Source: Candidatus Nomurabacteria bacterium
GTDB lineage: Bacteria > Patescibacteriota > Minisyncoccia > Phycocordibacterales > UBA9973
DNA length: 64,000 nucleotides
Reading direction: 5' to 3'
NCBI GenBank assembly: GCA_026395965.1
Contig: JAPLXS010000012.1
Location: forward strand, 115,977 to 179,976
The notes below the pieces were generated by a model. It was given only the letters and a program-made list of their open reading frames with translations. It was not told where the DNA came from and ran no database searches. Positions 34,893-51,906 of the stretch are shown here, piece by piece (positions within the stretch are counted from its first letter, which is position 1; every line of letters starts with the position of its first letter). Position numbers and translations under genes: made by a program.

Positions 34893-35153
34893 TTAAATTA
34901 CCTTTTTTTGTTTTTTGATATAATTTAAAAATAATATTATTGTTAAAATAAAAAATATAACTACAATAATTTTATTATCTTTAAATATATTCAATAAAGG
35001 AGCAAGGATTTCAATTTTTTCTTTTGAAGTTATATAAACAAGAATATACAAGAAGCATACACCTGCCATACTACCCAAAATAAAAATATTAACAAATACG
35101 AATAAAAGTTTTGTAATACCTACAAAACAGTTATATATTTTTATTAAATTCAT
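34893..35153 (-). CDS. Small hydrophobic protein (3 predicted TM helices)
   Basis: 86-aa ORF composed almost entirely of hydrophobic segments. Confidence 0.3.
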   Translation of the reverse strand: MNLIKIYNCFVGITKLLFVFVNIFILGSMAGVCFLYILVYITSKEKIEILAPLLNIFKDNKIIVVIFFILTIILFLNYIKKQKKVI

Positions 35154-35333
35154 AATATCAAGTTTTATTAGTTAATTTGAGCAATAGATACCTTGTATCT
35201 GTTATTCAAATTAACCAATATTCCATAATACACTTTTTATTATATTATCACACATATAGTAATGTGTCAAAATAATTTAATCAAAAAAATAATATAAAAA
35301 TTAAATCCCCTACTTATGTAAGGGATTTTTTGT

Positions 35334-35996
35334 TTAACAAATTTTAATTTTTTCGTTTTTATTAAAAAATGAAAAAATAAATTTATCTTTAATTTCTTCT
35401 TTTTGCTTCGAAGTAATAACACCAGGAAAGATATTGCAATATTGGTCTAATATGAACTTATTATAACAATAAAATTTAATTGAATGATCACTTACCATAT
35501 TTGTTATACGCATAAGCAAATCCAATCTTTGATAAGTAGACATTGGAATATGCTTAAGTAAAGAGCAATAAAGATTACAAATTAAATTAGGTTGAAATAA
35601 CGATAAACCGCTCCAGATATATTTTGATTTTTTATTATAATCTAATAATGATTTATATATCCCTTCAATAAAAGGAATATAGTAATCGCAGGGCTTAGTC
35701 GAATTTTGCAAATGATAATCAAATATATCTGCAATATTACTATAAATACTAACATCATATACATGACCACTACTTTTATAATTTGAATCTTTCAAGCTAT
35801 TTTCGAGCAATTTTTCACCTCCAGCATATGATAATATCAACAATTCAATATGTTCTGGTTTCAGAGAGTCGCTATTTAAAATTGATTTTATTTTATTTTT
35901 ATTATTTTGAGATAGACCTACAAAAGGACTCTCAAAAAGAACGCATTTTTCTAACTCAACCATAGCTATCTCGTGGTTTTCTATTTTTTCTATCAT
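35334..35996 (-). CDS. Hypothetical protein
   Basis: 220-aa ORF followed by a terminator-like hairpin (aATCCCTacttatgtaAGGGATttttt at about 35303-35330). Confidence 0.45.
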   Translation of the reverse strand: MIEKIENHEIAMVELEKCVLFESPFVGLSQNNKNKIKSILNSDSLKPEHIELLILSYAGGEKLLENSLKDSNYKSSGHVYDVSIYSNIADIFDYHLQNSTKPCDYYIPFIEGIYKSLLDYNKKSKYIWSGLSLFQPNLICNLYCSLLKHIPMSTYQRLDLLMRITNMVSDHSIKFYCYNKFILDQYCNIFPGVITSKQKEEIKDKFIFSFFNKNEKIKIC

Positions 35997-36059
35997 TTTC
36001 TATATTTTTAAATTTTGATTTATATTACAAATAAAATAGAGTCATGTCAAATTATACAT

Positions 36060-36182
36060 AATATAGACAAGCTTTTCGATTCTCCTCACGGTTCGATTTA
36101 CTAATCGCCGGATGAGAAGCAAGCAGTTGCTTCTCATAGGGCCACAAAAGAAAAGAGCCCCACATTCGTGGGGCTCTTTTTC
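36060..36182 (+). ncRNA. Candidate small RNA: 43-nt conserved module, GCAG-loop hairpin and an intrinsic terminator
   Basis: Module 36072-36114 is identical to 38061-38103. Hairpin GAGAAGCA-agcagt-TGCTTCTC at 36114-36135. Terminator GAGCCCCACattcGTGGGGCTCttttt at 36155-36181. The element lies upstream of both flanking genes, so it is not their terminator. Confidence 0.4.
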
Positions 36183-36187
36183 TACGC

Positions 36188-36589
36188 GTGAGCCTAGTCG
36201 AGATGCGACCATGGAATTCATTATCGTGTAAGGCTTGTTTTAACTATTTGCTATTATATATTTACCCTTCTCGAGAGATAAAATTAATTAAAAGTATAAT
36301 TATATTGCTATATTGTTGTTACTTTTATATAATTATGAATATGGAAAAGTTTAAACCACAAATAAATAATAATATTGAAAATAAAGAATCGCCGGAAGAA
36401 AAACATTCAAAATGGAAAAAAGAAGCGAGGGTATTATTAGAAGGTATTGGATTTTCTACTGGTGTTATTGTGTCATTAAGTCTTATTGAAAGATATTTTG
36501 GAATTGATTTAACATCGAATGCAATAAATTTATCTGCTGTTATATCATCTATGACATATATGGGTATTAGACGCGAAAATTTGAAATAA
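36188..36589 (+). CDS. Hypothetical small membrane-associated protein
   Basis: 133-aa ORF. Its stop overlaps the next start (ATGA), suggesting a translationally coupled pair. Confidence 0.4.
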   Translation: MSLVEMRPWNSLSCKACFNYLLLYIYPSREIKLIKSIIILLYCCYFYIIMNMEKFKPQINNNIENKESPEEKHSKWKKEARVLLEGIGFSTGVIVSLSLIERYFGIDLTSNAINLSAVISSMTYMGIRRENLK

Positions 36590-36590
36590 A

Positions 36591-36881
36591 ATGATAAATA
36601 TAAATGAAATTAAAATAAAATTAAAAGAATTAGGTTTTAAAGATGAAAGTGTCGATACTATTATTTATGATGTCATTCAAGTTATTTTAGCTAAGTCGTT
36701 TGGATCATGTCTCTTGAAATTTCCGGAGAATGAGCAGTCTAAATTAAAGAAATTTTCAATAAATGAATTTGAAGAATATATAGAAAAGAATAAGGATAAA
36801 TTACCAGAATTTTCAGGTGAAGAATTTAAAAATATTTATAATGAAACTTGGAAAAACTATTTTGATACTATCTCAAAATAG
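36591..36881 (+). CDS. Hypothetical protein
   Basis: 96-aa ORF coupled to the upstream gene. Confidence 0.4.
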   Translation: MININEIKIKLKELGFKDESVDTIIYDVIQVILAKSFGSCLLKFPENEQSKLKKFSINEFEEYIEKNKDKLPEFSGEEFKNIYNETWKNYFDTISK

Positions 36882-36935
36882 TTTTAAATCGTCCAAATTT
36901 TAGCCTTATCGAGAGCTCGAATTAGCTTTCGACTT

Positions 36936-36952
36936 GGTGACCCTACCGGGAA
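36936..36952. repeat. 17-nt direct repeat identical to the 3' end of tRNA-Glu (candidate distal att site)
   Basis: ggtgaccctaccgggaa = 50502-50518. Confidence 0.7.
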
Positions 36953-37092
36953 CGGCATTAGCCTTATCTCCCTCGACTAAAACTTTTTATCAAAAAAGTT
37001 TTGTCTGGGCACCAGCTCATCTATTTTTCTTACTAGAAAAATATGATTCCGCTGTTCGATTCCCGAACACAAGCAAAGCAGTTTGCTTGCTC

Positions 37093-37146
37093 AGGGTCAC
37101 AAATTAAAAAATCTGCCTTACAGCAGATTTTTTAATTTGTGACCCT
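37093..37146. repeat. 24-bp perfect palindrome (bidirectional terminator-like) with an A6/T6-flanked stem
   Basis: AGGGTCACAAATTAAAAAATCTGC-cttaca-GCAGATTTTTTAATTTGTGACCCT. A variant copy at 38325-38371 has a different inner stem. Confidence 0.8.
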
Positions 37147-37346
37147 AGGGAGTTCAAATTGGAATCTTATTGTATATCAGATAAAGGGTTTTAAGGATAT
37201 TCTCGCCTGTTTATTAGATAAAACCTGAGTTTGTATCAATACAATAATAGATATTTTGGAAAATAAAAAAATCTGATCAATTTGATCAGATTTTAAAATA
37301 CTCTTTTTTCACGAACCAAGATAACATATTGTAGTACCAATAGGAT

Positions 37347-37895
37347 TTAATATAGATTTAACAATATATATATATTAGGAATTATAGTTTTAGAAAAACC
37401 ATTTATTTCTAAGAGAGTTTTTAAGGACTTCTTAGGAGTGAAAGATATATCATTTACTTTGACAATATCTATTCTTTCTTTCCAATCTACTTCATGAATC
37501 CAATCATAAAAACAATTCCTACGATAATGTTTATAAGCGAAATAACTTCTAGTTTCTTTTTGTTCATCTTCCTTGTATGGATTAAGTAGGACAGTTTCAA
37601 GTAAATACATAACATTTGGTATGTATTCATCAAGTTTTTTAAAGGTTCCTTGATACTCAAGATTAACTTGGTTATCATTTCCATATTCCTTATTTAAAGT
37701 TTCCATCATAATCTTTATTAAACTTTTACTATCTAAATAGGATTGATTCTCTTCCAAATCAATACCAAGAAAAATAAAATAATAAGATAAGGGTCCTTCT
37801 GTGGATTGGAGATGTAATAATTTTATTTCTGAAGGATCAAAAAATAAACCTAAAGACTTCGTAAGTTTAGTTGTAATATTTTCTTTTATTTTCAT
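37347..37895 (-). CDS. Hypothetical protein
   Basis: 182-aa ORF between the two tRNA-Glu-derived repeats. Confidence 0.4.
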   Translation of the reverse strand: MKIKENITTKLTKSLGLFFDPSEIKLLHLQSTEGPLSYYFIFLGIDLEENQSYLDSKSLIKIMMETLNKEYGNDNQVNLEYQGTFKKLDEYIPNVMYLLETVLLNPYKEDEQKETRSYFAYKHYRRNCFYDWIHEVDWKERIDIVKVNDISFTPKKSLKTLLEINGFSKTIIPNIYILLNLY

Positions 37896-38019
37896 CTTCT
37901 TATATTTAAATTGGTTATCACAAATCTCCTAAAAGACCTCTGATAACCAATCAAATATAAATTTGAAAGAACAGTAACATTAAGCAAACAATAACATTAT
38001 TATATATACTCGTCAATCT

Positions 38020-38034
38020 GTGACCCTACCGGGA
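38020..38034. repeat. 15-nt direct repeat matching the tRNA-Glu 3' end (candidate internal or older att site)
   Basis: gtgaccctaccggga. Confidence 0.65.
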
Positions 38035-38546
38035 TATCTTTCTCTACGAGAACAGTATACCTTTTCGATTCTCCTCACGGTTCGATTTACTAATCGCCGG
38101 ATGCGAGACCGGGACCGTGAGTACACTTATCGAACCTTACAGGTTCAGTACACCTTTTCCGTTCGTGAGTACACTCATAATGAAGAACTTTTTAACTCCC
38201 GGGAACCATGATTACATGTTCGGTCGCTCATAATTTTCTGCTGAAAATTTGTGCGACCCCGCCTCAGCTCGTCAGCTTCCGGCTTTCGATTTTTTAAAAT
38301 ATAAATACTTTTATATTTTAAAATCACAAATTAAAAAACCCGACCTTTCAGTCGGAGCTTTTTAATTTGTGAACGTTTAAGTAATAGAACCCATGCAATT
38401 TATTACCCCGCAAGGTTGTTTTTAATAATCTGACTTTTACATTTTAACCCTTCTCGTGCGACTATAAAAAGTGACAAAAGTGACACATCTTGAGATATAA
38501 TTATTACACCCAGGTGTCACTTTATTTAATATGATATAATGAAAAT

Positions 38547-39329
38547 ATGGAAAAATTACCTCAAAAAGTACATGAAAATAAAGATTTGGCGGTACATCTT
38601 GTAAGACATGCGAAAGCATTATATATACAAAATGAATGGGATGATATTGAAACAGCTAATGATATTGGTTCTCCAGAAGGGAAAAAACATGAATTAGACA
38701 AAATTAAAGCTACCGCAGAAAAGATAGCTTCTCTTGTTGAGAAAGGTGAAGAAATAGCTATTTGGGCTTCTCCTACAGGAAGGACTCTTGAAACAGCCAA
38801 GACTCTTAGTTTAGAGTTAAAGAATTTTGGGGTTGAAATAAGAGATGCCAAAAACTCTTATGGTGTAAATATTTTTGATCAAATAGGAGAAGTAAAAAAT
38901 TTTTCTCATGAAATATTTATGAAGTTTGTTAATGGTGGTACTATTAAAATGGAAGGAAATGATATTTTTTTAGAAAAGAAATATACTAATCCTGATAATT
39001 TACCACCTAATATTTATTTTCAACAAGATGCAATACATAATATAGATAAAAAATATAAGGATAGTTTACCCAATATACTACAGGAAGGTGTAGGTAATAT
39101 CGAAAAGTTTTATGAAGTAACAAATAGAATACAATCTGTTCTTAAAAGACTTAATAATTTACATGACAAAAAATACAGAATAATAATAGTAACACATGAT
39201 GCTCTTACTAGTTATTTAGTTAATGAATTTACTAGTGGAGATAAACAAGGAATAGATCCAGCCGAGATGGTTTCATTACTTAGAGAAAATGGCACACTAA
39301 AAGTGTGGTCAATAACTTCAAATGATTAA
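38547..39329 (+). CDS. Histidine phosphatase family (PGAM/SixA-like) protein
   Basis: N-terminal VHLVRHAK (RHG-type motif) and C-terminal IIIVTHDALTSYL (the second catalytic His region). Confidence 0.5.
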   Translation: MEKLPQKVHENKDLAVHLVRHAKALYIQNEWDDIETANDIGSPEGKKHELDKIKATAEKIASLVEKGEEIAIWASPTGRTLETAKTLSLELKNFGVEIRDAKNSYGVNIFDQIGEVKNFSHEIFMKFVNGGTIKMEGNDIFLEKKYTNPDNLPPNIYFQQDAIHNIDKKYKDSLPNILQEGVGNIEKFYEVTNRIQSVLKRLNNLHDKKYRIIIVTHDALTSYLVNEFTSGDKQGIDPAEMVSLLRENGTLKVWSITSND

Positions 39330-39733
39330 GCTCTGAATTCGTTTAGCCCATCAGAATATCCTTCAACAACTTTAATTAAAATAGGTTTTTCAAAGTATTC
39401 GATAAGACCATTGTCGAACGCCTTTTGTAATAACTCATTTGAATATAGAGGATCTAAGTTTTTAATACAGGAGAGAGTGATATGCGGGAATTTATTTTTT
39501 GATTTTATGTTTTCGACTAAAAGAGCATCTCCCTTTTCATCAGTAGCTCTACCTAAAATTTTAATATCGTATATTTCTCCAACATTTATATCATTTAAAT
39601 TATTTGGTTTAAACTCAATAGTAGAATGGTCACCAAAAACCGCTTCGTGTTTAGGTGAAAAAATTTCTAAGATTCTGTTAATATCAATTACAAATAACGC
39701 AGTGCACAAAATTTCTTTATTATCCATACTCAT
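39326..39733 (-). CDS. Hypothetical protein
   Basis: 135-aa ORF convergent with, and overlapping, the neighbouring gene end. Confidence 0.35.
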   Translation of the reverse strand: MSMDNKEILCTALFVIDINRILEIFSPKHEAVFGDHSTIEFKPNNLNDINVGEIYDIKILGRATDEKGDALLVENIKSKNKFPHITLSCIKNLDPLYSNELLQKAFDNGLIEYFEKPILIKVVEGYSDGLNEFRA

Positions 39734-39790
39734 TATTATACTATATATGTTTATTGCTTTAAAAGATATTTTGTTCTATTATCTTTATAT

Positions 39791-40342
39791 ATGATATTAA
39801 ATTCACATACAATAATTTCACCTTATACTAATGAATGGAAGGATAAATTTAGCACTGAAAAAGACTTAATTCTTGATTTATTAAAGGATAAAATTCTTGC
39901 AATAGAACATATTGGAAGTACTTCTATTCCAGGACTTTCAGCTAAACCTATCGCTGATATAGCTATCATAGTGAATGAATTTGAACCAGCAGATGTATTT
40001 AGTAAAGATTTAAGTAAGTTGGGGTATAAATACAATTCATCTAGTACTGAAAGACATTTTTATATAAAAGGAGATCCTGAGAGTTTTCATTTGTCTATTT
40101 CCTTTGCTAATAGAGGGGGTTTTTGGGTTAGACAAATACTTTTCAGAGACTACTTGAGAAATAATCCTGAATCAAAGAAAGAGTATGAGGAATTAAAAAA
40201 GAAACTTTTAACTGAAGACCCTACTGGGGTAAATTCTTATTTTGCAGGAAAAGATGCTTTTGTTAAAAAGATATTAACTTTAGCAAATTGGAAAGAAAAT
40301 CAATTGTATTCAGATTACATGAAAGATAAAAAGTTAAATTAG
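39791..40342 (+). CDS. GrpB-family (UPF0157) nucleotidyltransferase-fold protein
   Basis: IEHIGSTSIPGLSAKPIADIAIIV is the GrpB signature. Confidence 0.7.
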   Translation: MILNSHTIISPYTNEWKDKFSTEKDLILDLLKDKILAIEHIGSTSIPGLSAKPIADIAIIVNEFEPADVFSKDLSKLGYKYNSSSTERHFYIKGDPESFHLSISFANRGGFWVRQILFRDYLRNNPESKKEYEELKKKLLTEDPTGVNSYFAGKDAFVKKILTLANWKENQLYSDYMKDKKLN

Positions 40343-41409
40343 TTCAGTTTAATTGTTTTATATTGTATAAATGTATCTTCTGGTTTAGATTGTTTATATA
40401 TAAAAATCTCTTTAACTTCCATTTTTGTATTTTTTATTTTAAGGAGTTCACTTTCGATATCTTTTTTTATTATATCTGAGTAGAAACCTTTTTTAAATTG
40501 GATTAATGTAGTATGTGGTATGTATTGTGAACCTTCAAAATATCTTGATTTTAACTCAGGACTACAATTTAGCTTATTGATTAATTTATTATGCATATCA
40601 ATTAAAATTTTTGAATCTGATTCTAGATATAAAACTGAATTGTTAAATACGCCAATATTTTTAAATGAAAGTCTAAAAGATTTATAATTTTTAATTATCT
40701 CTTCAAAATTTGCAATCCATAATTCATTGGGTAATAACCCCCCAGGTGCTTTTATCGTAATATGAGGTTCAGCAAGTAATAAAACTGAGTCCAGAGAGTA
40801 TATCTTATGAATATTTAATACTAAATCTTTAACTTGTCCCAATATTGGGATCGCGATGAAATATTTTTCCTGTATAATTTGATCTTCTGAAAAGTCTAAT
40901 ATTTTTTTAACAAATTCTGTTTTTCCTGAATTATAAACTTCACCTAGAGAGAGGTCCACGAATTCTTTTTCTGGTGTAATTTTTAAATTATTTTCTTTTA
41001 AATTTTGATATTCTAAAATATGCTTCGGGTTATTAATTAAATAATCACGAAAAAGAATCTGTCTTCTCCAGAATGAAAATTTTGGAGAAGACACAGAAAG
41101 ATGATATTCTACAGGGTCACCTTTTCTACAAAAAATTCTTTCAGCTGATGACATTTTTGGATAATATACATATCCTAATTCCTGTATAAGATTAATAATA
41201 GGATCAATGTTGTCTATCGAGTTTACAAGAACGGCTATATCTATAATAGGCTTGGCTGAGAGCCCAGGGATGGAAGTACTTCCAATATGCTCAATATTTA
41301 GAACATCATATTTATTCTCAAAAGTTTTTGTTATTTTTTCTTTTTCTATTTCAAACTTGGTTTTCCAAAATTCTTGATATTTTGTGAAAAATTGATGATT
41401 ATTTTCCAT
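40339..41409 (-). CDS. GrpB domain fused to a 2H phosphoesterase (LigT-like) domain
   Basis: N-terminal IEHIGSTSIPGLSAKPIIDIAVLV (GrpB). C-terminal half has two H-x-T-x motifs (HITI and HTTL) about 85 aa apart. Confidence 0.6.
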   Translation of the reverse strand: MENNHQFFTKYQEFWKTKFEIEKEKITKTFENKYDVLNIEHIGSTSIPGLSAKPIIDIAVLVNSIDNIDPIINLIQELGYVYYPKMSSAERIFCRKGDPVEYHLSVSSPKFSFWRRQILFRDYLINNPKHILEYQNLKENNLKITPEKEFVDLSLGEVYNSGKTEFVKKILDFSEDQIIQEKYFIAIPILGQVKDLVLNIHKIYSLDSVLLLAEPHITIKAPGGLLPNELWIANFEEIIKNYKSFRLSFKNIGVFNNSVLYLESDSKILIDMHNKLINKLNCSPELKSRYFEGSQYIPHTTLIQFKKGFYSDIIKKDIESELLKIKNTKMEVKEIFIYKQSKPEDTFIQYKTIKLN

Positions 41410-41412
41410 ATA

Positions 41413-42204
41413 TTATTCGTTTTTCTTATTTTTAAATGATAATAAATTACTGTCCTCAGAATATATAAAGGTTATGTTTGGATATTTTTTTAATGAATAT
41501 TCATAAACCGCTGTATTCTTATAATAAGAGTTAGGATACATTATAACTTTTTTACCCAACATTGTACTGGCAATAGCTATGTGCAATCTGTCTGTTCTTA
41601 TTTCTTCATATTTAGATATTTCTTCTAAAAAATCTTTAATTGGTTTTTTGCAATATCCATTTTTTGAAATATCAAAATTATTTTTAGGTTTTATTTTTTT
41701 TATAGATTCGCAATCTTCTCTAAAAGCATTCAAAATACCAGTCCCATTTTTTTTGTATGAATCAAAATTATTATAAAATGCACAATCGTGCCATATATAA
41801 ACTTGGCAATTTTTGGCATATTCTTTGACGAAATCATAACTAATCATATCTCTGCAAAATATCGTGACATTATTATTTAGGGTTTCTAGTAATGATTTTT
41901 GTTTTTCTCCGTTAATTGTATGTGGTAGTATTATAACTTCTTTGTATTGTTGATTTTTTTTAATCAAAAAATCTCTAACATCAAAATAATAATCTACAAA
42001 ATTACCACCTCCATCTATAAAAAGAACATTATTATGTACACCATCTTCGGTGTTGACATATTTTAAATTTATAGATAGTTCCTCCATTAATTTTAATGTT
42101 CCATGCCATATTAAAGAATCACCATAATTACCATTGAATCTATAAAAATCAACTTCTGTATTTGAGAATCTTTTTAAATATTTTTTTAAATCCATTTCTT
42201 TCAT
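41413..42204 (-). CDS. Polysaccharide pyruvyl transferase-like protein
   Basis: N-terminal GNYGDSLI and C-terminal TDRLHIAIAS resemble the pyruvyl-transferase family. Confidence 0.45.
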   Translation of the reverse strand: MKEMDLKKYLKRFSNTEVDFYRFNGNYGDSLIWHGTLKLMEELSINLKYVNTEDGVHNNVLFIDGGGNFVDYYFDVRDFLIKKNQQYKEVIILPHTINGEKQKSLLETLNNNVTIFCRDMISYDFVKEYAKNCQVYIWHDCAFYNNFDSYKKNGTGILNAFREDCESIKKIKPKNNFDISKNGYCKKPIKDFLEEISKYEEIRTDRLHIAIASTMLGKKVIMYPNSYYKNTAVYEYSLKKYPNITFIYSEDSNLLSFKNKKNE

Positions 42205-42213
42205 AAAATAATT

Positions 42214-43893
42214 TTATATATTGTTTTTAATAACCTCAAAGACAAAATTAGGTATAATTTTGTCAAAACAAAATTCTTCACAGCAATCAATTTCTTCTTG
42301 TCTCTTTGTGTGGTTACATAATATATGCCTATTTTTGTTGTATATAGATATGGTTTCTTTATTTAAATTTAGATATTTAGGATGAGTTGCCCCAAATATC
42401 ATAAAAGACTTCTTTTTAAAACTTTGAGCTATAATGGCAGGACCAGAATCATTACCTATAAAAAACTCACAATACTTTATTAAAGATAACATTTCTTTAA
42501 AACTATTGCTGTCATCTAGAAAAATTACCTTGACTCTAAGTTCTTCTATTATTAGAAATGAAAGATCTTTATAATTTTTAATACCCCAATTTCTTTTATT
42601 TTCTTGCCACGAGCTAGTGTTCGGAGCTATTAAAACATACTTTTCTTTCATTAATACATCATGTTTATCATTAAGGAAAGGTAAATTATTAATATTTTCA
42701 TCTATTCCTGCTGATTCAGCAAATCCCTGGATATAAGTTTTGTCATTTCGTGAATTTTCATAATTTAATTTTATTTTTATATCTACACCATCAAAATCAT
42801 TTATGTCTGAATAATTTATAATTCCATCATAAGCGGGAAGTAAGTTATTGATGTTATTTATATTTGTGGCTAAGTAAACTTTATTAACGTATTTATGTAA
42901 ATATCTAGCAATGGGTTCTGTCATTATTACATCACCAAGATTTCCTTTTCTTATTAGGCAGATGGAATTAATTTCCCTGTTTTTTATTTTATTAATAAAA
43001 TATGTTTTATACCAAAAGTTTAAAGTATTATCAGTTATTATTTTATTTTTTTCTATAACTGTTCCCCAAAATGTTCTATGCTCAGAAAACCACATTTCAT
43101 TTACTTTTTCTAAATTATCTTTAAATTCGATCACGTAATTTTTAATGGTTTGTATCCTCTCAAGCCAAGGAGAATTATCATTTGAACTAGAGTCTCTTTC
43201 ATATTTTGCTAGTTTTTTCCATTTTTCATAAATCATTTTTGCTGTATTCCTGAATTCATAATGTAGTAACTTGGCTTCGTTGTAAGGAATTATAAAAGGA
43301 TTACTTGTATATGTACCAAAAAAATCAGGATTATTTCTAGACTTCACATAATGTCCACCAACCACAATTTCGATATTCTTATGATTCTTGATTATAGCTT
43401 TTCTGAAATGGCCAAACTCTTGCCATGGTTTTTCTGGCCATGGTAAATAATAACAATTTGTATCTATTGGAGTAGCTTGTGCACGACTGCATTCAAATAA
43501 TGCGTTTGCCCATCCGATAGTTGCATACACGATACCAGCTTTTTCTAGTCGATCAATAAAAGCATGAATTGTCTTATCTTTCATACTTACAAATTCATCT
43601 GCATCCAGCATAAAAAACCAATCCACTTTAAAATTTTTATTTGCAAATGAAAGTAGTTTATTCGCAATTTTTGCATGGTCAAAAACAGGGTCTTCTTCTT
43701 TGATTACAATTATTCTTTTGTCCGCATTGTAGCTTTCCAGGATATCGTTTGTTTTATCTGTTGAACAATGGTTAGCTATAAAAATATAATCAAAACCAAT
43801 ACTAAGGTGATATGATATATTCAAGTCAATAAAACTCTCCTCATTTCTAACTACCATCAAAATAGCAATTTTATTATCTGTTTTGTTCTCCAT
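42214..43893 (-). CDS. Two-domain glycosyltransferase: GT2-like N-terminus plus GT9 (heptosyltransferase-like) C-terminus
   Basis: N-terminal MVVRNEESFIDLNISYH (GT2 family). C-terminal CLIRKGNLGDVIMTEPIARYL and FIGNDSGPAIIAQSF (GT9 signature). Confidence 0.55.
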   Translation of the reverse strand: MENKTDNKIAILMVVRNEESFIDLNISYHLSIGFDYIFIANHCSTDKTNDILESYNADKRIIVIKEEDPVFDHAKIANKLLSFANKNFKVDWFFMLDADEFVSMKDKTIHAFIDRLEKAGIVYATIGWANALFECSRAQATPIDTNCYYLPWPEKPWQEFGHFRKAIIKNHKNIEIVVGGHYVKSRNNPDFFGTYTSNPFIIPYNEAKLLHYEFRNTAKMIYEKWKKLAKYERDSSSNDNSPWLERIQTIKNYVIEFKDNLEKVNEMWFSEHRTFWGTVIEKNKIITDNTLNFWYKTYFINKIKNREINSICLIRKGNLGDVIMTEPIARYLHKYVNKVYLATNINNINNLLPAYDGIINYSDINDFDGVDIKIKLNYENSRNDKTYIQGFAESAGIDENINNLPFLNDKHDVLMKEKYVLIAPNTSSWQENKRNWGIKNYKDLSFLIIEELRVKVIFLDDSNSFKEMLSLIKYCEFFIGNDSGPAIIAQSFKKKSFMIFGATHPKYLNLNKETISIYNKNRHILCNHTKRQEEIDCCEEFCFDKIIPNFVFEVIKNNI

Positions 43894-44632
43894 AAATAAT
43901 TTTATTTAAGTCCAATTTAAAACGATAAAAAGCTGGATGTTCTGGCCATGTTGCATGAAAAAGATCTATGTTATCTAAAGATTTAATTTCTAAATTTTGG
44001 TGATCACTTATTAAAGCATATTTTTCTTTCGGTAAAATTAATAGACTCCCATTCCTTAGGTATGGAGTAAGAGCAATAGCTAAAGATCCTTGTTCGTCGT
44101 GGTGGGTTTGGTTCTTGTATGAAATATTTTTCAGCCACCACTCAAATTCTCGAGCAAGATCTGGTGTTATGTCATAATTTTTCTTTTGAATAAATAATCC
44201 TGCATTTATAAAAGGTGTATCGGGTGAAGCTTTAACTTTCATTGCTCCATGTTGCCAACTTTCACCTTCAAATTCATCTAGAATTGCGAAATGTAAACTA
44301 TCATCGTTTAAAAAATTTTCAATTTCTTTTGGGTATTTTACAAGAAATACATCTGAATCTATATAAAATTCTGTCTCATCAATGTTTATTCTAGATTTGG
44401 GACACCATTTCAACCAAGTTGCTTTTGATTTAACGTCAAACATGCTTTTATTTTCTGAAAAAAAAGATTTAACTTGAGCTATGTTTTTTAAGCTTACTGG
44501 TATTGATTCAACATTGTCGGTGTATAAAATATATTTATGAGAATCACCGTACCATCTTTTAAAAGAAGAAATGCTGTATTCTAACATTTCATAATTTTTA
44601 TTATCTCCCCATATTGACCATCTAAATATCAT
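43874..44632 (-). CDS. Hypothetical nucleotide-sugar transferase-like protein (DxD motif)
   Basis: YIDSDVFL DxD-like motif; 252 aa; overlaps the neighbouring genes as in an operon. Confidence 0.35.
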   Translation of the reverse strand: MIFRWSIWGDNKNYEMLEYSISSFKRWYGDSHKYILYTDNVESIPVSLKNIAQVKSFFSENKSMFDVKSKATWLKWCPKSRINIDETEFYIDSDVFLVKYPKEIENFLNDDSLHFAILDEFEGESWQHGAMKVKASPDTPFINAGLFIQKKNYDITPDLAREFEWWLKNISYKNQTHHDEQGSLAIALTPYLRNGSLLILPKEKYALISDHQNLEIKSLDNIDLFHATWPEHPAFYRFKLDLNKIIYGEQNR

Positions 44633-45903
44633 ATATTTTCTAGAAAATTAATTAAGTTATTTGAATAATCAAAATCTTTTACTGAATTTTCATTAAGTTT
44701 TGACATATTTTTCCGATTGTCTATTGTGGTGTTAGATGCAATATAAAGAGTTTCAGCAAACATATCTATATTTAAAGGATCTACAAGGTAGCATTCATTT
44801 TTTTCAAAAGAATCTTTGACCCCATCTTTATCACTGGCAACTATTACATAGTTCATATCCTTCATAAATAGTTTAGCTTCTATGGGGGTATGTGGATTTG
44901 GATCCATTAACGATGGTAAACAAACTATATCTGTATTTTTATATCTCAAAATAGATTTCCAAATATTTTGATTAAAGTTGTTTACAACAACTACCCGAGG
45001 TAAAACATTAGCCATTTCTATTAATTTTGAATAGTATTCATCTTCTCCTGAATTATTTGGGGCTTGTAAAATAAGGAAGTGATTGGACAGTTTGTTGTTT
45101 ATTATCGCCCATGCATCAATTAATTCTTTGAAACCTTTGGCGACCGAACATCTACCCCAACTAAATATAATTTTTGACCCACTGTTTAAGTTTTGATTTA
45201 AATAGCTAATATCTTCAAATTTTGTATTCATTTTTAATGACTCTGCGTATTCACTAAATGATAATCCATTTTTAAGATAATCATTCATTGTAAAGCGTAA
45301 TCCATAATTATCGAATAAATGCTCACCGAAACTATTTCCTGTAGCTATCACTCTAGAATTTTTATCTTGATTTATTAAAGTAAAACATTCTTTTTCTATG
45401 TGAACTCTCTCATCTCTCCATATTTTATTTCCAAATACATGATTTAATCCACTACTATGTGGTAAATAATAACATTTAAGATTTTTATTAATCACTTGAT
45501 CTTTAAATTTTGAAAATAACAAAAATGGAGTATCGTGTAACATTAATATGTTTTCTTCATCTTCTTTAAGAATGAGATTTAAACTTGTGGCAAGAGAAGC
45601 GGATACATAATTCCATTCTGGAAAACTTCTCCACATATCCCACTCTGTTAGCCCCTTTGTTCCATTACACAATGGAACCATAAAGCCTTGAGTTTTGTTT
45701 ACCAGAGAGAGGCTTTTACTGTAACTTTCTTTGCTGTATGCTTTGCCTTCAGGGCTAGCTGTAATATAGGCAATACTTACCCTTATATTATTATCTTTGG
45801 CGTAATTATTTAGTGTTGCAACAGTATTTTTAGCTATTGTTCCTACTCCACAATAAAAAGTAGATAGTCCATCATATGACGCTATAATAATATGCTTTTT
45901 CAT
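44629..45903 (-). CDS. Putative glycosyltransferase (GT-B-like)
   Basis: 424-aa first gene of the glycosyltransferase operon. Weak GT4-like C-terminal features. Confidence 0.35.
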   Translation of the reverse strand: MKKHIIIASYDGLSTFYCGVGTIAKNTVATLNNYAKDNNIRVSIAYITASPEGKAYSKESYSKSLSLVNKTQGFMVPLCNGTKGLTEWDMWRSFPEWNYVSASLATSLNLILKEDEENILMLHDTPFLLFSKFKDQVINKNLKCYYLPHSSGLNHVFGNKIWRDERVHIEKECFTLINQDKNSRVIATGNSFGEHLFDNYGLRFTMNDYLKNGLSFSEYAESLKMNTKFEDISYLNQNLNSGSKIIFSWGRCSVAKGFKELIDAWAIINNKLSNHFLILQAPNNSGEDEYYSKLIEMANVLPRVVVVNNFNQNIWKSILRYKNTDIVCLPSLMDPNPHTPIEAKLFMKDMNYVIVASDKDGVKDSFEKNECYLVDPLNIDMFAETLYIASNTTIDNRKNMSKLNENSVKDFDYSNNLINFLENI

Positions 45904-46082
45904 ATGCTATTTATAATAACACATAATTTATGACTTAGCAATTGTTAATTAAATAATAACACTTCGACCTTGTTATTAAAAGTTTATTGTATCGCAGACG
46001 CTTGAAATCATAGAGGAAGTTACCAACATGTTGCCAACAATTAATGCCTTAGCAAAAGATTAAATTTCTGGCATCATTAGGT

Positions 46083-47399
46083 ATGGAGACAACCAATATA
46101 GGTCTTATTTATAACCCAATAATAGCAACTGAAACAAGGATCAAATACGTGCTGTATGCACGTAAATCGACTGAATCTGACGAGCAACAAGCATTGTCGA
46201 TAGATTCTCAGATTAAGGAAATGACCACCATAGCAGAGCGTTTAAAGCTTAATGTAGTAGCAATCAAAAGAGAGTCTCATTCAGCTAAAGCTTCAGGACA
46301 AAGACCTGTATTTAAAGAATTATTAGAGGAGATTAGCAAAGGTATCTATAACGGAATCTTAACATGGGCACCAGATAGACTTTCAAGAAATGCGGGAGAT
46401 CTAGGTACTGTTGTTGATTTTATGGATGAAAAGAAATTAATTCATATACAAACCTTTGGACAAACTTTTTCTAATTCACCGAATGAAAAATTTCTTTTAA
46501 TGATTTTATATTCTCAGGCAAAACTTGAAAATGATAATAAAAGTATAAATGTTAAACGAGGTCTAAGAGCAAGAGTAGAGATGGGATTATGGCCATGTAA
46601 ACCTCCAACTGGTTACACTAAGTTTAAAAGAATGGATCAAAAGTGTGAAGCAATAATTGATCCAGTCCGTGCACCCATCATAAAACAAATATTTGAAAAA
46701 GTTGGTTATCAAAATTGGAGTGGCAGAAAAGTATTTCATTGGTTGAAGCAAGATATAGATTTTAAAACTGAAAATAATATACATCTTAGTTTAGGAAATT
46801 TATATGTAATAATATCAAATACTTTCTATTACGGAAGATTTGAATTTCCAAAAGGTTCAGGTAATTGGTATAACGGAGCACACGAGCCAATCATATCAAA
46901 AGAACTTTTTGATTTAGTTCAAACACAAATTAAAAGTCAGATAATGGAACCGAGATCAAAACAAAAAGAATTTGCTTTCACTAGAATTATGACTTGCGGA
47001 TTGTGTAGTTCTGGAATTACGGCAGATGAAAAATTTAAAAAGCACAAAGACGGAACAGTGAGCCGTTACGTATATTATAAATGTACTAGAGTAAAAGATT
47101 CTAAATGTAAAAGTGGTTACATAAATGAAGATGACTTAATTAGACAGCTTCAAAATCTTATTGATGATCTTGAGATTCAAACAGTCCCAATGAGAGAGAA
47201 AATAACAAGTGAAGTTAAACGATTTAAGAGTTTTGAAAAAATGTTGTTAGGAAGAAAAAGCCCTGTAATTATTAAAGATATAGATATTCGTAATTATGCT
47301 AAGTTTATACTCCAAGAAGGATCAATGGACGAAAAACGAGAGTTTTTAAGGTGTTTAAATAGTAAAATTTTTTTAAATGGGAAAAAAGTAATTATTTAA
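46083..47399 (+). CDS. Large serine recombinase (resolvase/invertase catalytic domain, recombinase domain and zinc ribbon)
   Basis: N-terminal YARKSTESDEQQALSIDSQ with the catalytic Ser. Later ...APDRLSRN. C-terminal Cys cluster CGLCSSG...YYKC. 438 aa. Confidence 0.8.
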   Translation: METTNIGLIYNPIIATETRIKYVLYARKSTESDEQQALSIDSQIKEMTTIAERLKLNVVAIKRESHSAKASGQRPVFKELLEEISKGIYNGILTWAPDRLSRNAGDLGTVVDFMDEKKLIHIQTFGQTFSNSPNEKFLLMILYSQAKLENDNKSINVKRGLRARVEMGLWPCKPPTGYTKFKRMDQKCEAIIDPVRAPIIKQIFEKVGYQNWSGRKVFHWLKQDIDFKTENNIHLSLGNLYVIISNTFYYGRFEFPKGSGNWYNGAHEPIISKELFDLVQTQIKSQIMEPRSKQKEFAFTRIMTCGLCSSGITADEKFKKHKDGTVSRYVYYKCTRVKDSKCKSGYINEDDLIRQLQNLIDDLEIQTVPMREKITSEVKRFKSFEKMLLGRKSPVIIKDIDIRNYAKFILQEGSMDEKREFLRCLNSKIFLNGKKVII

Positions 47400-50300
47400 T
47401 AATTGCTTCTATTAATTTATAAGAGGTGGATTCTAGTATTTCTTTTATTTTATCTTTTGGAGTAATTAATAATTGTTCTTTTGTTTTTATTCCTGCTTTG
47501 ACTAATGCTAAATATTCTTCACGAGACATTTCAATATTTATATTTAAAAGACCAAAGCATTCTGATGGAATTCCTGTTTCTAGACTCTTAAGTAAATCTT
47601 CAAATATTTTATCTTCTAACATTTCGCCAGGAAAAATAATTGTAGCAATTTTATGAACTGACCTAAGTTGGAATCTAGTAAAATCAGCAAAGGTTCTTAT
47701 GTTGCCATAAGCGATATTACCCATATAAGGATTGTTTGATTTGAACGTTTCTTCAATATCTGGGGTTGGAATACCATTAATCCAATCAAACAGAACTGAT
47801 GCTTTTTTACATCGAGCATAATATTTAAATTCATCGCCATTTGTAAATCTTTGTAGTAATCTAACAATTTCAGGTCCAAAACGTTGAGATGCCTCTCTAG
47901 GTCGCTTAGATTCAGATGTCCCTTTTTTAAACATAGGGGTATATGTATTGTCTGATTCTGGAAGTATTTGTACTATAGCCATTAATTCATTTGCACTCAA
48001 AGAAGGGTTTTTATAATCCTTTAATAATTCAACAAGACGTAATGCTGATCTAAAAGACAATACTGATTCTCCGCATACCTTACCTAAAATAGTTAAATGA
48101 ACTAAACCATTTTCTTCTTCTGCAATACCCAATCTGACCATTTCATTATATAAATTTTCAAGCTCTTGTCTCATTTTCTTTTCCCACTCCGGATCTTTTT
48201 TATTAGCGACATAACCACCATACGTATTTGCTAGAAGATTAAATAGGTCATTTTTATGAACATCTTTTACTTGAACTAAAAGTTTTATTACCCAAGTATC
48301 AAGATCTGAAATATCAAAAGATGATATTAATGGTTCAGGTTTGCCTAAGACATATTTGTTGAACAAAAAATCTGGACTGCTTCCATTATCTGCTAAAATA
48401 ATTGCTTTTCCTTTTTCATTAAATCCTACACGACCAGCTCGTCCAGCCATATTTTTATATTCAGCAATAGTAAATATTCGTCCATTTTCACCAACAAATT
48501 CTTGTTCCGCTAAAATTGCAGTAGAAGCGGGTGTATTAATCCCCGCAGCAACTGTGGTTGTTGCTACAAGAACTTTAATTTTACTATTCGTATCACGGAA
48601 TACGCGTTCTACAATTCGTCGTTCTTCTCTGCTTAGGTTTGAATTATGAAATGCTGTTCCACCCTCGAAGCAAGTTCTAAGTTTAGAAGAAGTAGAAGAT
48701 GATGCATATCTAGGAAGCATATTAACTTCATCTAAAGCTGGAGGTAATCCAATATCAGTAGCAAGATAATTAGCAGCTCCTTCTGTTAATCCTTTTTGAT
48801 TACGAAAAATTATAATTTTTTCTCCCTTTTCAACTAGACTTTTTACAAGTGGAACAATCATATCTTGTTGACTTGGCTTGTCCTTACGTTGAACAATTTC
48901 ATGATACGGAACTAGCTGTTCCATCTTTATTTCTCCATTTTCTGAAAGATATTTAAATTGACCGTTTCTACCCATAACTCCTTCTATTAATGGAATTGGC
49001 CTTTTAGTCGTTAAAAGTTTTCTACATCCTAACCAATCTTCAAAATTATTACTATCACCAATAACTGCTGATAAAATAACTAATTGAGGATTAACACCTC
49101 GTGTTCTTACGGCAATAAGATTCGTTAACAGTAATTCTACAGATATTCCTCTGTTTAAGTCAGTGATAAATTGGGCCTCATCAAGAACTACTAAACCAAT
49201 TTGATTTAAAACAGAAGGTAATGAAATACTTAAATTTAAAAACATTTCATATGTAAAAAGTGCAATATCATACTTACCCTTAATAAATTCATTATTTTGA
49301 TCTAAATAATCTCCTGTACAACGTATTACTCTATAACCAAGTTTATTTTGATACAGATCAATAAATTGATCATATTTTTCATTAACTAATGCTTTGTAGG
49401 GAAAGAGAAAAACTGATTTTTTCCCCATGGAAACAGCCTTAGCACTGGCTAATTCACCTACAAAAGTTTTTCCAGAACTAGTCGGTGCAATTACAAGGAC
49501 TGATTCGTTCTCTAAAATTCTATATTCATTTATTGCTTCAAGTTGTAAATCATTTAATCCGTTTTTAAATAATTGGCCCCATTCTTTTGTTAATTCTTCA
49601 GGGATCCCGAATTTATTTAGCTCTTCAATTTTATTTGAAATCTTTACTCCTCTTTTTTGAGGAAAGGCATTAAAATAATTTTTTCCAGGTATAAGTTTGG
49701 GAAGTGTTAATCCTCCTGTGACATGATTTAATAAAACTGGAGTTTGAATTACTCCTATTCTACTTGCTTCAGCTCTTACAATATCCATTATGTCTCCCAT
49801 TGCCGACAACATGTTTATAGTCTCATCTTTAGATAAAGTTAGTATATCAATAAGAGCTTTTGTTAAAATTCCATGTCCTGTTGACGGTAATTCATATGAG
49901 GGTTCATCAAAATTTGAGGCAGCAATAATAAATCTTCCTTCTCCAGACAATGAATCAAGGGGGTTACCTATATTACGAGGGATAGGACTATCTTCCAAAA
50001 CTTTAGCTGGAGCACCTCCACTAAAACAACAGTCAAGTATACACAAAATATTTTTTGCTTTACTTTGCTTGAAAAGATCAGCAATCCCTTGCATGGGGAA
50101 AGTAGTTTTTTCTATGTTTATGATTTCTGTATCAAAACCAGTTATTCTGTGATCTTTAGACCCATGTCCAGAATAGAAAAAAATAATGGTATCATTTTGA
50201 GTTGCAATAGATAAGCTTTCTTCTAATGCTTTTTTAATATTATAAATATTGGCGTTAGTTCCAGTAATAATTTCACCAATAATTTCTTTATCTAACGTAT

Positions 50301-50409
50301 CAATAAAAAGATTTCCTAATGCTAATGCATCATTTTTTGCTCCACTTAAGTCTCGTATTGATGGATCTTTGTATTTATCTACTCCAATGAATTTAGCTAT
50401 TATTGCCAT
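47392..50409 (-). CDS. Caspase-like (peptidase C14/CHAT-like) domain fused to a Ski2/Hel308-like SF2 helicase; candidate defence protein
   Basis: Caspase His in IIFFYSGHG (~aa 82) and Cys in CILDCCFSGG (~aa 127). Helicase motif I VLVIAPTSSGKT (~308), motif II VVLDEAQF (~410), motif III SAV, motif VI NMAGRAGRVG. 1005 aa. Confidence 0.75.
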   Translation of the reverse strand: MAIIAKFIGVDKYKDPSIRDLSGAKNDALALGNLFIDTLDKEIIGEIITGTNANIYNIKKALEESLSIATQNDTIIFFYSGHGSKDHRITGFDTEIINIEKTTFPMQGIADLFKQSKAKNILCILDCCFSGGAPAKVLEDSPIPRNIGNPLDSLSGEGRFIIAASNFDEPSYELPSTGHGILTKALIDILTLSKDETINMLSAMGDIMDIVRAEASRIGVIQTPVLLNHVTGGLTLPKLIPGKNYFNAFPQKRGVKISNKIEELNKFGIPEELTKEWGQLFKNGLNDLQLEAINEYRILENESVLVIAPTSSGKTFVGELASAKAVSMGKKSVFLFPYKALVNEKYDQFIDLYQNKLGYRVIRCTGDYLDQNNEFIKGKYDIALFTYEMFLNLSISLPSVLNQIGLVVLDEAQFITDLNRGISVELLLTNLIAVRTRGVNPQLVILSAVIGDSNNFEDWLGCRKLLTTKRPIPLIEGVMGRNGQFKYLSENGEIKMEQLVPYHEIVQRKDKPSQQDMIVPLVKSLVEKGEKIIIFRNQKGLTEGAANYLATDIGLPPALDEVNMLPRYASSSTSSKLRTCFEGGTAFHNSNLSREERRIVERVFRDTNSKIKVLVATTTVAAGINTPASTAILAEQEFVGENGRIFTIAEYKNMAGRAGRVGFNEKGKAIILADNGSSPDFLFNKYVLGKPEPLISSFDISDLDTWVIKLLVQVKDVHKNDLFNLLANTYGGYVANKKDPEWEKKMRQELENLYNEMVRLGIAEEENGLVHLTILGKVCGESVLSFRSALRLVELLKDYKNPSLSANELMAIVQILPESDNTYTPMFKKGTSESKRPREASQRFGPEIVRLLQRFTNGDEFKYYARCKKASVLFDWINGIPTPDIEETFKSNNPYMGNIAYGNIRTFADFTRFQLRSVHKIATIIFPGEMLEDKIFEDLLKSLETGIPSECFGLLNINIEMSREEYLALVKAGIKTKEQLLITPKDKIKEILESTSYKLIEAIIK

Positions 50410-50500
50410 AATAAATAAATATTAGCACTAATAGCTATTAGATGATAGTTATAATAACAAAAAACATATTTTCATATATGCTTCTCGTGCTAGCACGTGA

Positions 50501-50575
50501 TGGTGACCCTACCGGGAATCGAACCCGGATTACCGGCTTGAAAAGCCGATGTCCTAACCGTTAGACGATAAGGCC
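50501..50575 (-). tRNA. tRNA-Glu (anticodon TTC), CCA encoded
   Basis: Reverse complement GGCCTTA-TC-GTCT-AACGGTTAG-GACA-TCGGC-TTTTCAA-GCCGG-TAAT-CCGGG-TTCGATT-CCCGG-TAGGGTC-A-CCA. Confidence 0.85.
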
Positions 50576-50955: not shown

Positions 50956-51906
50956 ATGAAAAAAAATCAAGTAATACCAAACACTAAGACACCAACTGTG
51001 GTCTATTTAATTCTATTAATGATAATATTAATATTCGGCACAATTTTTTATTCCTTATTTGGAATATGGGGGATAATTATTTTCTTTATTATTTTAGCGT
51101 ACTTTACGTCACTATTTTTAGAAGATGATATTCCTATGTTCCATGCACTAATAATGAGAGGTGGCACAGGAAAAATGCGAGTACTATTTCCAGGAGTTTT
51201 TAATTTTAAATTACCCTGGGAACAAGCACACGAAGAAAACGGTGCTAAGAAATACATCGATCTTAGGGTTGAAACTGGTGAAATATGTAATGATACATAT
51301 CCATCAAAAGACACCTTAATGAAAACACAATATGTGTATTCATTAAGACCTGATCTTAGAAAAAGTAATAACGGAACTATTGAAGAAAATATTATAAAAT
51401 TTTCTTCATTTGAGATTTCTGCAATTAGAGAGAAGGCTAAAGCATTATTTTCAATGTTACTTTCTGATTGGTATGCGAACAAGAGTGGTGATGATTTAAA
51501 AAATAAATCATTAATCAACAAAAAACTTTTTGGAACAAAAGACAAGCCATCTAATGCTGTCACCGAATTTGAAAAAGAACATGGCGTTGAAATTTCTGTT
51601 CGACTTGTCGACAGTGATTTTAATGACAATGTTCAAGAATACCGTGATAAAATCGCTGGTGCAAAAACCATCAATGAAATACGAAATATTTTAATGAAGG
51701 ACGACATTCACGAAGATGGAACTGTAGCAAAAGGAGTTAGTCCTGAAGTCGCAGATCAAATGATTAAATTTATGGAGTTTGGCAACTACTCAGAAAAAGT
51801 TGTAAATCTAAACATCAAAGCACCAGACCTTGGAAATCTACAAAATGTAAATTTATTAGGTGGAACAGGAATCACTGGTGATGAAAAAAAAGAAGGTAAA
51901 AAATGA
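50956..51906 (+). CDS. Membrane protein, possibly SPFH/band-7-like
   Basis: Two N-terminal TM helices, then ...IMRGGTGKMRVLFPGVFNFKLPW, which resembles the start of SPFH domains. Lys/Gly-rich tail. Confidence 0.35.
   Translation: MKKNQVIPNTKTPTVVYLILLMIILIFGTIFYSLFGIWGIIIFFIILAYFTSLFLEDDIPMFHALIMRGGTGKMRVLFPGVFNFKLPWEQAHEENGAKKYIDLRVETGEICNDTYPSKDTLMKTQYVYSLRPDLRKSNNGTIEENIIKFSSFEISAIREKAKALFSMLLSDWYANKSGDDLKNKSLINKKLFGTKDKPSNAVTEFEKEHGVEISVRLVDSDFNDNVQEYRDKIAGAKTINEIRNILMKDDIHEDGTVAKGVSPEVADQMIKFMEFGNYSEKVVNLNIKAPDLGNLQNVNLLGGTGITGDEKKEGKK

Follow-up and report, generated by a model that had tools for sequence, protein, structure and literature searches.

The stretch of DNA analyzed here, referred to as the window, comprises 64,000 nt of a metagenome-assembled genome (MAG) of Candidatus Nomurabacteria (Patescibacteria, or candidate phyla radiation, CPR; GCA_026395965.1, JAPLXS010000012.1:115,977-179,976, forward strand). 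Near 50.5 kb it carries an intact tRNA-Glu(UUC) gene, whose 3' end, at the low coordinate, encodes CCA (TGG on the plus strand) and faces a genomic island. This island contains a gene for a large serine recombinase (LSR), a set of cargo genes, and several short copies of the tRNA 3' end. The relationship among these components, and that between the LSR family and tRNA genes in other genomes, is the subject of this report.

Features of the Island

The features of the island and its borders are collected in Table 1. An initial annotation made from the sequence alone had placed the tRNA-Glu gene on the minus strand at 50501-50575, which ARAGORN and Rfam confirm, and had listed an LSR, a caspase-helicase, a histidine phosphatase, two GrpB proteins, and a polysaccharide cluster as the content of the island, all of which Pfam searches recover. 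It had also described co-oriented copies of the tRNA 3' terminus. The 15-mer GTGACCCTACCGGGA has three exact copies in the window, all on the plus strand (36937-36951, 38020-38034, and 50503-50517), and this number was reached in 0 of 100 dinucleotide-preserving shuffles (mean 0.02). Their common orientation thus stands, and the repeats are non-random. The length of 15 nt given for the middle copy is likewise correct, but the left copy, described as 17 nt at 36936-36952, is in fact a match of 18 nt (TGGTGACCCTACCGGGAA, 36935-36952) that spans the encoded CCA. The middle copy is without CCA, is cut in the T-loop, and has no right-end motif (see below) before it. A repeat search revealed a fourth, degenerate copy (GTGACCCTAGGGAGT) at 37139-37153. 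An Rfam scan of the whole window, combined with a permissive scan of 36.0-38.7 kb, gave three tRNAs and otherwise terminator-like noise.

Table 1. Features of the island at tRNA-Glu and of its immediate flanks (window coordinates).
Feature	Position	Strand	Basis and remarks
Low-GC (23%) block between iPGM and array	33651-36070	-	three ORFan genes (313, 86, and 220 aa)
Array left edge	36072-36187		M1 copy 36072-36117 and minus-strand terminator 36151-36180, ending 7 nt before GTGA; repeat search, terminator scan
LSR-less miniature element, subtype v2	36188-36901	+	partial left module 36188-36280, starts GTGAGCC; nhmmer E=2.5e-12
Putative relic attR, second LSR subtype	36902-36952	+	degenerate v2 motif AGCCTTATCGAGAGCTCGAATTAGCTTTCGACT 36902-36934, then 18-nt tRNA end 36935-36952, T-loop cut
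Perfect 24-bp hairpin with decayed tRNA-Glu 3' fragment	37093-37153	+	arms 37093-37116/37123-37146, 3' arm running into GTGACCCTAGGGAGT; repeat search
Relic unit with one ORF	37154-38019		182-aa ORF 37347-37895, minus strand, no family match
15-nt relic tRNA-Glu 3' segment	38020-38034	+	no CCA, T-loop cut
Relic unit, 334 nt	38035-38368		M1 copy 38061-38106 and minus-strand terminator 38339-38356 just before GTGA; repeat and terminator scans
Left-end module, attL-like, ~120 nt, non-coding	38369-38489	+	nhmmer profile E=1e-22
His_Phos_1 gene	38547-39329	+	Pfam
135-aa ORF	39326-39733	-	
GrpB	39791-40342	+	Pfam
GrpB fused to 2'-5' RNA ligase domain	40339-41409	-	Pfam
Polysaccharide pyruvyl transferase	41413-42204	-	Pfam
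GT2/GT9 fusion	42214-43893	-	Pfam
252-aa unknown protein	43874-44632	-	
GT1 glycosyltransferase	44629-45903	-	Pfam
Large serine recombinase, 438 aa, presumed integrase	46083-47399	+	Resolvase, Recombinase, and Zn_ribbon_recom domains
1005-aa fusion of caspase (Peptidase_C14, N-terminal) and DEAD helicase (HamB/Hel308-like)	47392-50409	-	Pfam
Right junction, attR-like	50481-50506	+	motif v1 CTTCTCGTGCTAGCACGTGA 50481-50500, then TG, then core GTGA 50503-50506 (tRNA nt 71-74)
tRNA-Glu(UUC), intact	50501-50575	-	ARAGORN; Rfam RF00005, 63 bits
316-aa protein NTU81_03675	50956-51906		right flank

The LSR Family and Its Linkage to tRNA Genes

The LSR possesses a catalytic resolvase domain (PF00239, E=8e-20, residues 23-168) and the C-terminal domains PF07508 (E=2e-12) and PF13408 (zinc ribbon, E=2e-6), and it matches PHROG 95, labeled "integrase" (4e-60). 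Its closest relatives of solved structure are SprA/YokA of SPbeta, with the TP901-1 integrase also among the best matches; a YARKS motif aligns with the catalytic region of SprA, and residues 263-389 form a second aligned stretch. From these features, the protein is presumed to be the integrase of the 12.1-kb element delimited below.

Identity to the window LSR is 74-94% in more than 120 protein clusters, and at least 565 LSR loci are present among species-representative genomes (one genome per species), mostly labeled as Patescibacteria MAGs, with two or three copies in several genomes. Copies that are 92-94% identical have wholly different neighbors and cargo in other genomes. One of these, locus L090 (GCA_038249055.1, JBBRWS010000001.1; 92% identical), adjoins Thoeris ThsA/ThsB genes, an N6/N4 methyltransferase gene, and a terminase-like gene, and has no tRNA within 10 kb to its right; it lies in the same MAG as locus L008, where a tRNA-Glu gene is unoccupied. 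Another adjoins a gene for a 1603-aa UvrD/STAND-type protein. The smallest elements of the family are only ~2.6 kb long (L044). No publication on an LSR family dedicated to tRNA ends, or on its end modules, came up in literature searches. The family is large and apparently undescribed, and it is situated next to tRNA 3' ends in these tiny bacteria.

The linkage to tRNA genes was quantified in 80 retrieved genome loci, each oriented on the LSR, with 33 IMG/VR contigs counted separately. Going right from the LSR, the first tRNA encountered is on the minus strand at 45 of the 80 loci and on the plus strand at none (binomial p = 6e-14), and the density of tRNAs in this right-side, minus-strand class is 0.97 per 10 kb, as compared with 0.10-0.24 in the other three strand/side classes. 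The same arrangement is seen in 13 of the 33 IMG/VR contigs, which carry more distant LSR relatives and in which the tRNA is often at the contig end. When the LSRs are clustered, the resulting subclades match the tRNA species concerned (Glu, Gln, Arg, Lys, Ser, Trp, Gly) as well as the form of the right-end motif. The clade of the window LSR (72-94% identity) is associated with tRNA-Glu, as is a second clade (about 60% identity), which is found once with tRNA-Gly; Arg, Lys, Ser, Trp, and Gln tRNAs each go with separate clades. The initial annotation had cautioned that tRNA targeting is typical of tyrosine integrases, whereas the recombinase here is of the serine type. The recombinase is indeed a serine recombinase, but the supposed anomaly disappears, since this LSR family is systematically linked to tRNA 3' ends.

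Conserved Ends of the Element

The ends of the element were recognized by comparison with 113 loci that contain related LSRs. At the right, related LSR loci show the same motif at a distance of 20 nt from the tRNA 3' end, irrespective of the type of tRNA. A linked tRNA is always followed directly by a clade-specific motif around CCTTCTCG or CCTCTCGG, with two to four nt between motif and tRNA end. The Glu-type motif has two forms, v1 (CTTCTCGTGCTAGCACG) and v2 (CTTCTCGAGTGCTCGAACTAGCNCTCGA). CTCG or GTCG occurs within 36 nt downstream of 41 of 45 LSR-linked tRNAs but, in the same loci, of only 7 of the 40 tRNAs that lack such a link (Fisher p = 3e-12); tRNAs without an LSR link typically have plain terminators downstream.

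At the left lies the non-coding module, for which an nhmmer profile was seeded on window positions 38361-38505. It consists, in order, of GTGA (38369-38372), a tRNA-like arm of ~25 nt, the boxes GCCCTGTAAGG and GAC-CCTTCTCG-TGCG, and the near-invariant AAAAAGTGACAAAAGTGACAC, after which -10-like and promoter-like sequence continues up to the ATG at 38547, so that this end of the module may represent the outward promoter region of the element. In related loci the module occurs as 42 full copies, each of which shares the strand of the LSR; 40 lie upstream of the LSR. In six minimal elements the module stops exactly 112 nt before the LSR ATG, whereas in other elements cargo intervenes and the module is 0.7-9.5 kb upstream; the window has one full and one partial copy. 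No consensus RNA fold was obtained for either strand, which argues that the module is not a structured RNA. The idea of an invertible promoter was likewise ruled out, since 42 of 42 modules share the same orientation relative to the LSR. As to the boxes themselves, AAAAAGTGACAAAAGTGACAC (e.g., window 38465-38485) is almost invariant across elements targeting different tRNAs, and the CCTTCTCG box occurs three times per element (right end, module start, and module interior), always in direct orientation; both may be candidate protein-binding sites.

The start of the module resembles the 3' end of the associated tRNA, read on the plus strand: GTGAGCC or GTGAACG versus GTGACCC for Glu, GCTGGCC versus GCTGGGG for Gln, GCGGAG versus GCGGAG or GCGGGC for Ser/Trp, and GTGCCCC versus GTGCCCC for Lys/Arg. 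This likeness runs ~25 nt into the T-arm (...GA.TAGAAC versus GAATCGAAC), and the identity of the module arm is 13.9/25 with the cognate tRNA versus 11.1/25 with non-cognate tRNAs (p = 3e-7). To the left of homologous modules, different genomes have unrelated sequence as far as the core, usually with a terminator hairpin. Minus-strand terminators end just left of both window modules, as would be expected of a former tRNA trailer. In nine of the 42 cases, nothing but (TG)GTGA separates the module from a right-end motif, which is the sequence predicted for attP or for the joint of tandem elements. In the window, the junctions at 38369 and 50503 have only GTGA in common, and the conserved ends together with this shared GTGA define an element of 12.1 kb (38369-50506).

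Probable Relic Units to the Left of the Element

Versions of the tRNA end are found at six places, which are, from left to right, 36188, 36935, 37139, 38020, 38369, and 50501. Because each new insertion would land beside the tRNA body, this series can be read as a chronological one, with the oldest version at the left and the newest at the right. Near 36.07 kb lies the start of the array. The partial module at 36188 begins like those of L084, L092, and L076, and the presence of this v2 left module and of a decayed v2 motif before the 18-nt copy suggests that 36188-36952 is a recombinase-less mini-element of the other Glu subtype, with two small open reading frames (ORFs; 36341-36589 and 36591-36881). 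A comparable LSR-less mini-element is present in L129, and the segment 36902-36952 matches the junction of right-end motif and tRNA in L069, L073, and L084 (BLASTN and right-end alignment). The hairpin segment at 37093-37153 appears to be a fourth tRNA-end relic with its terminator; a homologous stretch in L090 (1690-1749) stands directly before a left module. The relic unit at 38035-38368 shows partial homology to L090 1573-1662. Three of the tRNA ends are cut in the T-loop, which may point to elements that crossed over in the T-loop or to deletions.

A 46-nt repeat, M1, is 98% identical at 36072-36117 and 38061-38106, upstream of both left modules. It holds the T-loop-like GGTTCGATT, and a related stretch is found at L090 1570-1662; the repeat may be part of a host trailer or a small mobile unit. 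Logan contigs from the same sample break inside both M1 copies, at ~36.10 and 38.06 kb, because the repeat is present twice; presence/absence variation was considered as the cause of the breaks and rejected, as exact-protein look-ups gave the same contigs, broken inside M1. Layered relics like those of the window are also seen in L092 (JGI Ga0153915_10000115, 17847-18036), where a right-end motif and a 25-nt tRNA-Glu fragment are followed by a mini-unit of ~70 nt (CCTTCTCGAGAGG... and a v2 right-end motif) and then by an intact tRNA-Glu(CUC).

Flanking Regions, Synteny, and Composition

The gene order of the right flank is kept in relatives at 47-66% protein identity and comprises genes for the 316-aa protein, a 153-aa protein, five type IV secretion system (T4SS) pilins, a solute-binding protein, a methyltransferase, and GyrA. 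The five consecutive T4SS_pilin (PF18895) genes at 52423-55464, one of which is fused to IPT/TIG repeats, retain their order in all relatives examined. L008 (GCA_038249055.1) has a 100% identical tRNA-Glu at the syntenic place, without encoded CCA, and synteny with the window ends exactly at this tRNA: the window genes of 28-50.5 kb have no homolog there, and the DNA downstream of the L008 tRNA is unrelated and contains neither a right-end motif nor an LSR. L008 is a distant relative (47% aa identity). The initial annotation had proposed to look in related genomes for an uninterrupted tRNA-Glu followed directly by the 33-36 kb flank; the break at the tRNA was found, but a precise empty site was not. 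L008 further contains, within 9461-9728, a second copy of the 5' 46 nt of the tRNA (9678-9728, 98% identical) beside the intact gene. The two copies are separated by an insert of ~145 nt that partly resembles window 38220-38260, and this is a 5'-side duplication, opposite to the usual 3' fragments.

A shift in composition, which had also been suggested as a check, is indeed detectable, albeit mild: the GC content of 38.4-50.5 kb is 0.292 versus 0.301-0.313 in core 12-kb windows, and its tetranucleotide correlation to the core is 0.979 versus 0.993-0.996. On the left, the low-GC block of 2.4 kb next to the phosphoglycerate mutase gene may be older foreign DNA, and nothing ties it to the tRNA. 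Its ORFs have no family matches, and the sole homolog of its 220-aa protein in 5.8 billion proteins is itself, so that the left host boundary cannot be fixed by synteny.

Proposed Mechanism and Alternative Explanations

Overall, it is probable that the region 36.07-50.5 kb is a tandem insertion array at the tRNA-Glu 3' end, in which the tRNA-proximal 12.1-kb element is intact and would be the newest. In the proposed mechanism, attP would be formed by the right-end motif, followed by the core (TG)GTGA and then by the left module. In attB, GTGA (tRNA nt 71-74) would have the tRNA trailer or terminator on one side and the acceptor/T-arm on the other. Recombination of attP with attB by the LSR would generate attL at 38369 and attR at 50503 with duplication of ~4 nt; the predicted circle, or attP, junction is ...CTTCTCGTGCTAGCACGTGATG-GTGA-ACGTTTAAGTAATAGAACC..., and the predicted empty-site junction is ...GTCGGAGCTTTTTAATTT-GTGA-CCCTACCGGGAATCGAACC.... 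The arm of the element beside the core would mimic the tRNA arm, and the tRNA would be kept intact, with the element supplying C75 and A76, which would explain why the gene encodes CCA, unlike the unoccupied gene of L008. The 18-nt, the decayed ~15-nt, and the 15-nt fragments would be 3' ends of former tRNA versions, left stranded when later insertions beside the tRNA body displaced them, and the 18-nt fragment would still be attached to the right-end motif of another LSR subtype whose recombinase was lost. The repeats, the conserved ends, the tRNA linkage, and the covariation of LSR clade with tRNA type and arm sequence are direct observations, whereas we infer catalysis by the LSR, the exact crossover, the order of events, and present mobility. 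The integration hot spot at the tRNA-Glu 3' end and its composite build-up by successive events, which the initial annotation had put forward, are supported, and the synteny break, the unshared cargo, and the mild shift in composition mark the enclosed DNA as accessory.

More broadly, Patescibacteria may hold a very large family of serine integrases that uses the acceptor/T-arm end of tRNA genes as attB, switches from one tRNA to another via a co-evolved, tRNA-mimicking attP arm, and serves as a main route for exchange of defence and surface genes; we hold the chances of this wider proposal to be about even.

Several observations weigh against the tandem-array interpretation and its mechanism. 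No tRNA is present in the available right flank at 35 of the 80 loci, many of these flanks being short but ~15 extending over the full 10 kb. The relatives are MAGs or metagenome contigs throughout, so that mis-assembly at repeats is possible. Neither a precise empty site nor a circular junction of the window element was found in contigs from the source sample or in related genomes. The T-loop cuts of the older tRNA copies do not fit a crossover at GTGA, and the motifs of the attP arms are both direct and inverted repeats, which is unusual for LSR sites. Finally, the dyad symmetry of the predicted attP, 11-14/26, does not exceed the 95th percentile of random sites; with symmetry no better than chance, the GA suggested by a recurrent symmetry center is a tentative candidate for the central dinucleotide of the crossover.

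The most direct alternative takes the long repeats as true att cores, as in the initial annotation, which had read them as attL and attR of the LSR-bearing element. There would then be two elements (38035-50500 and 36953-38019), with crossover in the T-loop by the resident recombinase or by a tyrosine integrase since lost. In favor of this view, the repeats are exact and non-random, they share one orientation, and each of the two stops in the T-loop; longer tRNA fragments are located close to the tRNA at a small number of related loci (L024, L025, and L092), and some T-loop-type event must have made the fragments. However, the homologous mobile unit elsewhere starts at the GTGA of 38369, not at 38035, and stops at the motif abutting the tRNA, which places the 15- and 18-nt fragments 335 nt and 1.4 kb outside its boundary. 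The intervening stretch of 334 nt, from the 15-nt repeat to the module, resembles a separate relic that has a tRNA-type terminator of its own, and Pfam and PHROG scans of 36-50.5 kb found no tyrosine integrase. In addition, tRNA-end repeats of at least 12 nt are rare in 45 related loci (exact and relaxed search, up to 10 kb left of the LSR), most of which have none, which argues against long att cores. This explanation is therefore unlikely. The 15- and 18-nt repeats would instead be remnants of the tRNA 3' end that older insertions left behind, and the present element would have its ends elsewhere.

The fragments and the duplicated modules could also stem from local rearrangement of a single old island, through segmental duplication, deletion, or unequal crossing-over, given that M1 is 98% identical at 36072 and 38061, that similar hairpins (TCACAAATTAAAAAA...) occur at 37097 and 38324, and that the order of M1, terminator, left module, and gene is found twice. 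Yet the two modules, like the two right-end motifs, are of different LSR subtypes (v2 and v1) and match different foreign loci. Comparison of the modules already hints that the two nest in separate clades, and the genes behind them are unrelated by protein comparison, which makes such an origin quite improbable. That the element is a decayed Patescibacteria prophage, with the LSR as its phage integrase, might be suggested by the occurrence of LSR relatives on the 33 IMG/VR viral contigs, by the terminase-like gene beside the 92%-identical copy in L090, and by the best PHROG match, "integrase". This we regard as very improbable, because no capsid, portal, tail, or terminase gene was matched by PHROG or Pfam among the island proteins scanned (38.4-50.5 kb), because the cargo consists of glycosyltransferases, GrpB, RNA-ligase genes, and the caspase-helicase, and because minimal family members, such as that of L044, are only ~2.6 kb long.

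Cargo Genes

Under the tandem-array interpretation, cargo sits on both sides of the LSR gene within the 12.1-kb element. Searches by tblastn show this cargo to be essentially unique to the window element among the 113 LSR loci and other loci examined, with the exception of GrpB in L053. The caspase-helicase protein matches HamB (1e-32) and caspase (1e-16) models in PADLOC as well as PHROG 6819 (1e-66). No match to HamA, the partner in Hachiman, was found among the island proteins scanned, and the locus does not qualify as Hachiman; the gene is possibly a stand-alone defence gene and is best called a candidate. Other members of the LSR family, e.g., L092, have large helicase or NTPase genes at the same position. 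The block of glycosyltransferase and pyruvyl-transferase genes may modify a surface polysaccharide, although this is conjecture. The cluster at 38547-41409 combines genes for a histidine phosphatase, a CPD-like protein (weak tRNA_lig_CPD match), GrpB, and the GrpB-2'5'-RNA-ligase fusion, and could conceivably be a set for RNA-end repair, processing, or modification. Overall, the cargo looks like defence and surface-modification genes that differ between hosts, again as a conjecture.

Implications and Comparison With Known Systems

These considerations bear on the acquisition of variable genes for defence and the cell surface by Patescibacteria, whose genomes are tiny and in which few mobile elements are known. 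The specificity of the system leaves a readable signature, in that LSR subclade, right-end motif, and tRNA-like arm co-vary, and the explicit predictions of attP and attB can be tested in vitro. The findings suggest integrases that would act on tRNA ends, which many different hosts have in conserved form; if the wider proposal given above is true, ready pairs of integrase and att sites would be available for genetics in organisms that now lack tools.

Islands linked to tRNA genes are textbook knowledge and are ascribed to tyrosine integrases. The islands at tRNA and tmRNA genes of the Islander/TIGER type (PMC4383910) resemble the window element in that insertion occurs on the 3' side of the tRNA, the element restores the tRNA end, displaced tRNA fragments remain at old ends, arrays arise by reuse of the site, the integrase gene is internal, and accessory cargo is carried. 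The window element differs in having an LSR, a core of ~4 nt (tRNA nt 71-74) instead of 15-50 nt, and family-specific end modules. With phage serine integrases (phiC31, Bxb1, TP901-1, and SPbeta SprA), the window LSR shares the domain architecture and a very short attL/attR core; their targets, however, are protein-coding genes or intergenic sites, usually disrupted, whereas that of the window element would be a tRNA 3' end, matched by a tRNA-mimicking attP arm. SCCmec, which is mobilized by Ccr LSRs, likewise targets the 3' end of a conserved housekeeping gene with retention of gene function, forms tandem composite islands, and has a helicase gene beside the recombinase together with variable cargo. 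Unlike the window element, it inserts into rlmH (orfX), has direct repeats of about 15-18 bp, and resides in staphylococci.

Tycheposons of Prochlorococcus (bioRxiv 10.1101/2020.12.28.424599) are similar in having a streamlined host, cargo elements beside tRNA genes, partial tRNA copies, and tandem junctions. Of 937 tycheposons, 910 use tyrosine recombinases and 27 carry an LSR, and many have replication modules; they differ from the window element in their cyanobacterial host, and the text consulted describes no comparable left module or right-end motif. Serine-recombinase elements are otherwise characterized by very short repeats and by insertion inside genes (PMC5704250, a review of integrative and mobilizable elements), and a systematic survey of LSRs never mentions tRNA. 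The LSR family of the window, tied as it is to tRNA 3' ends, departs from this usual picture of serine recombinases.

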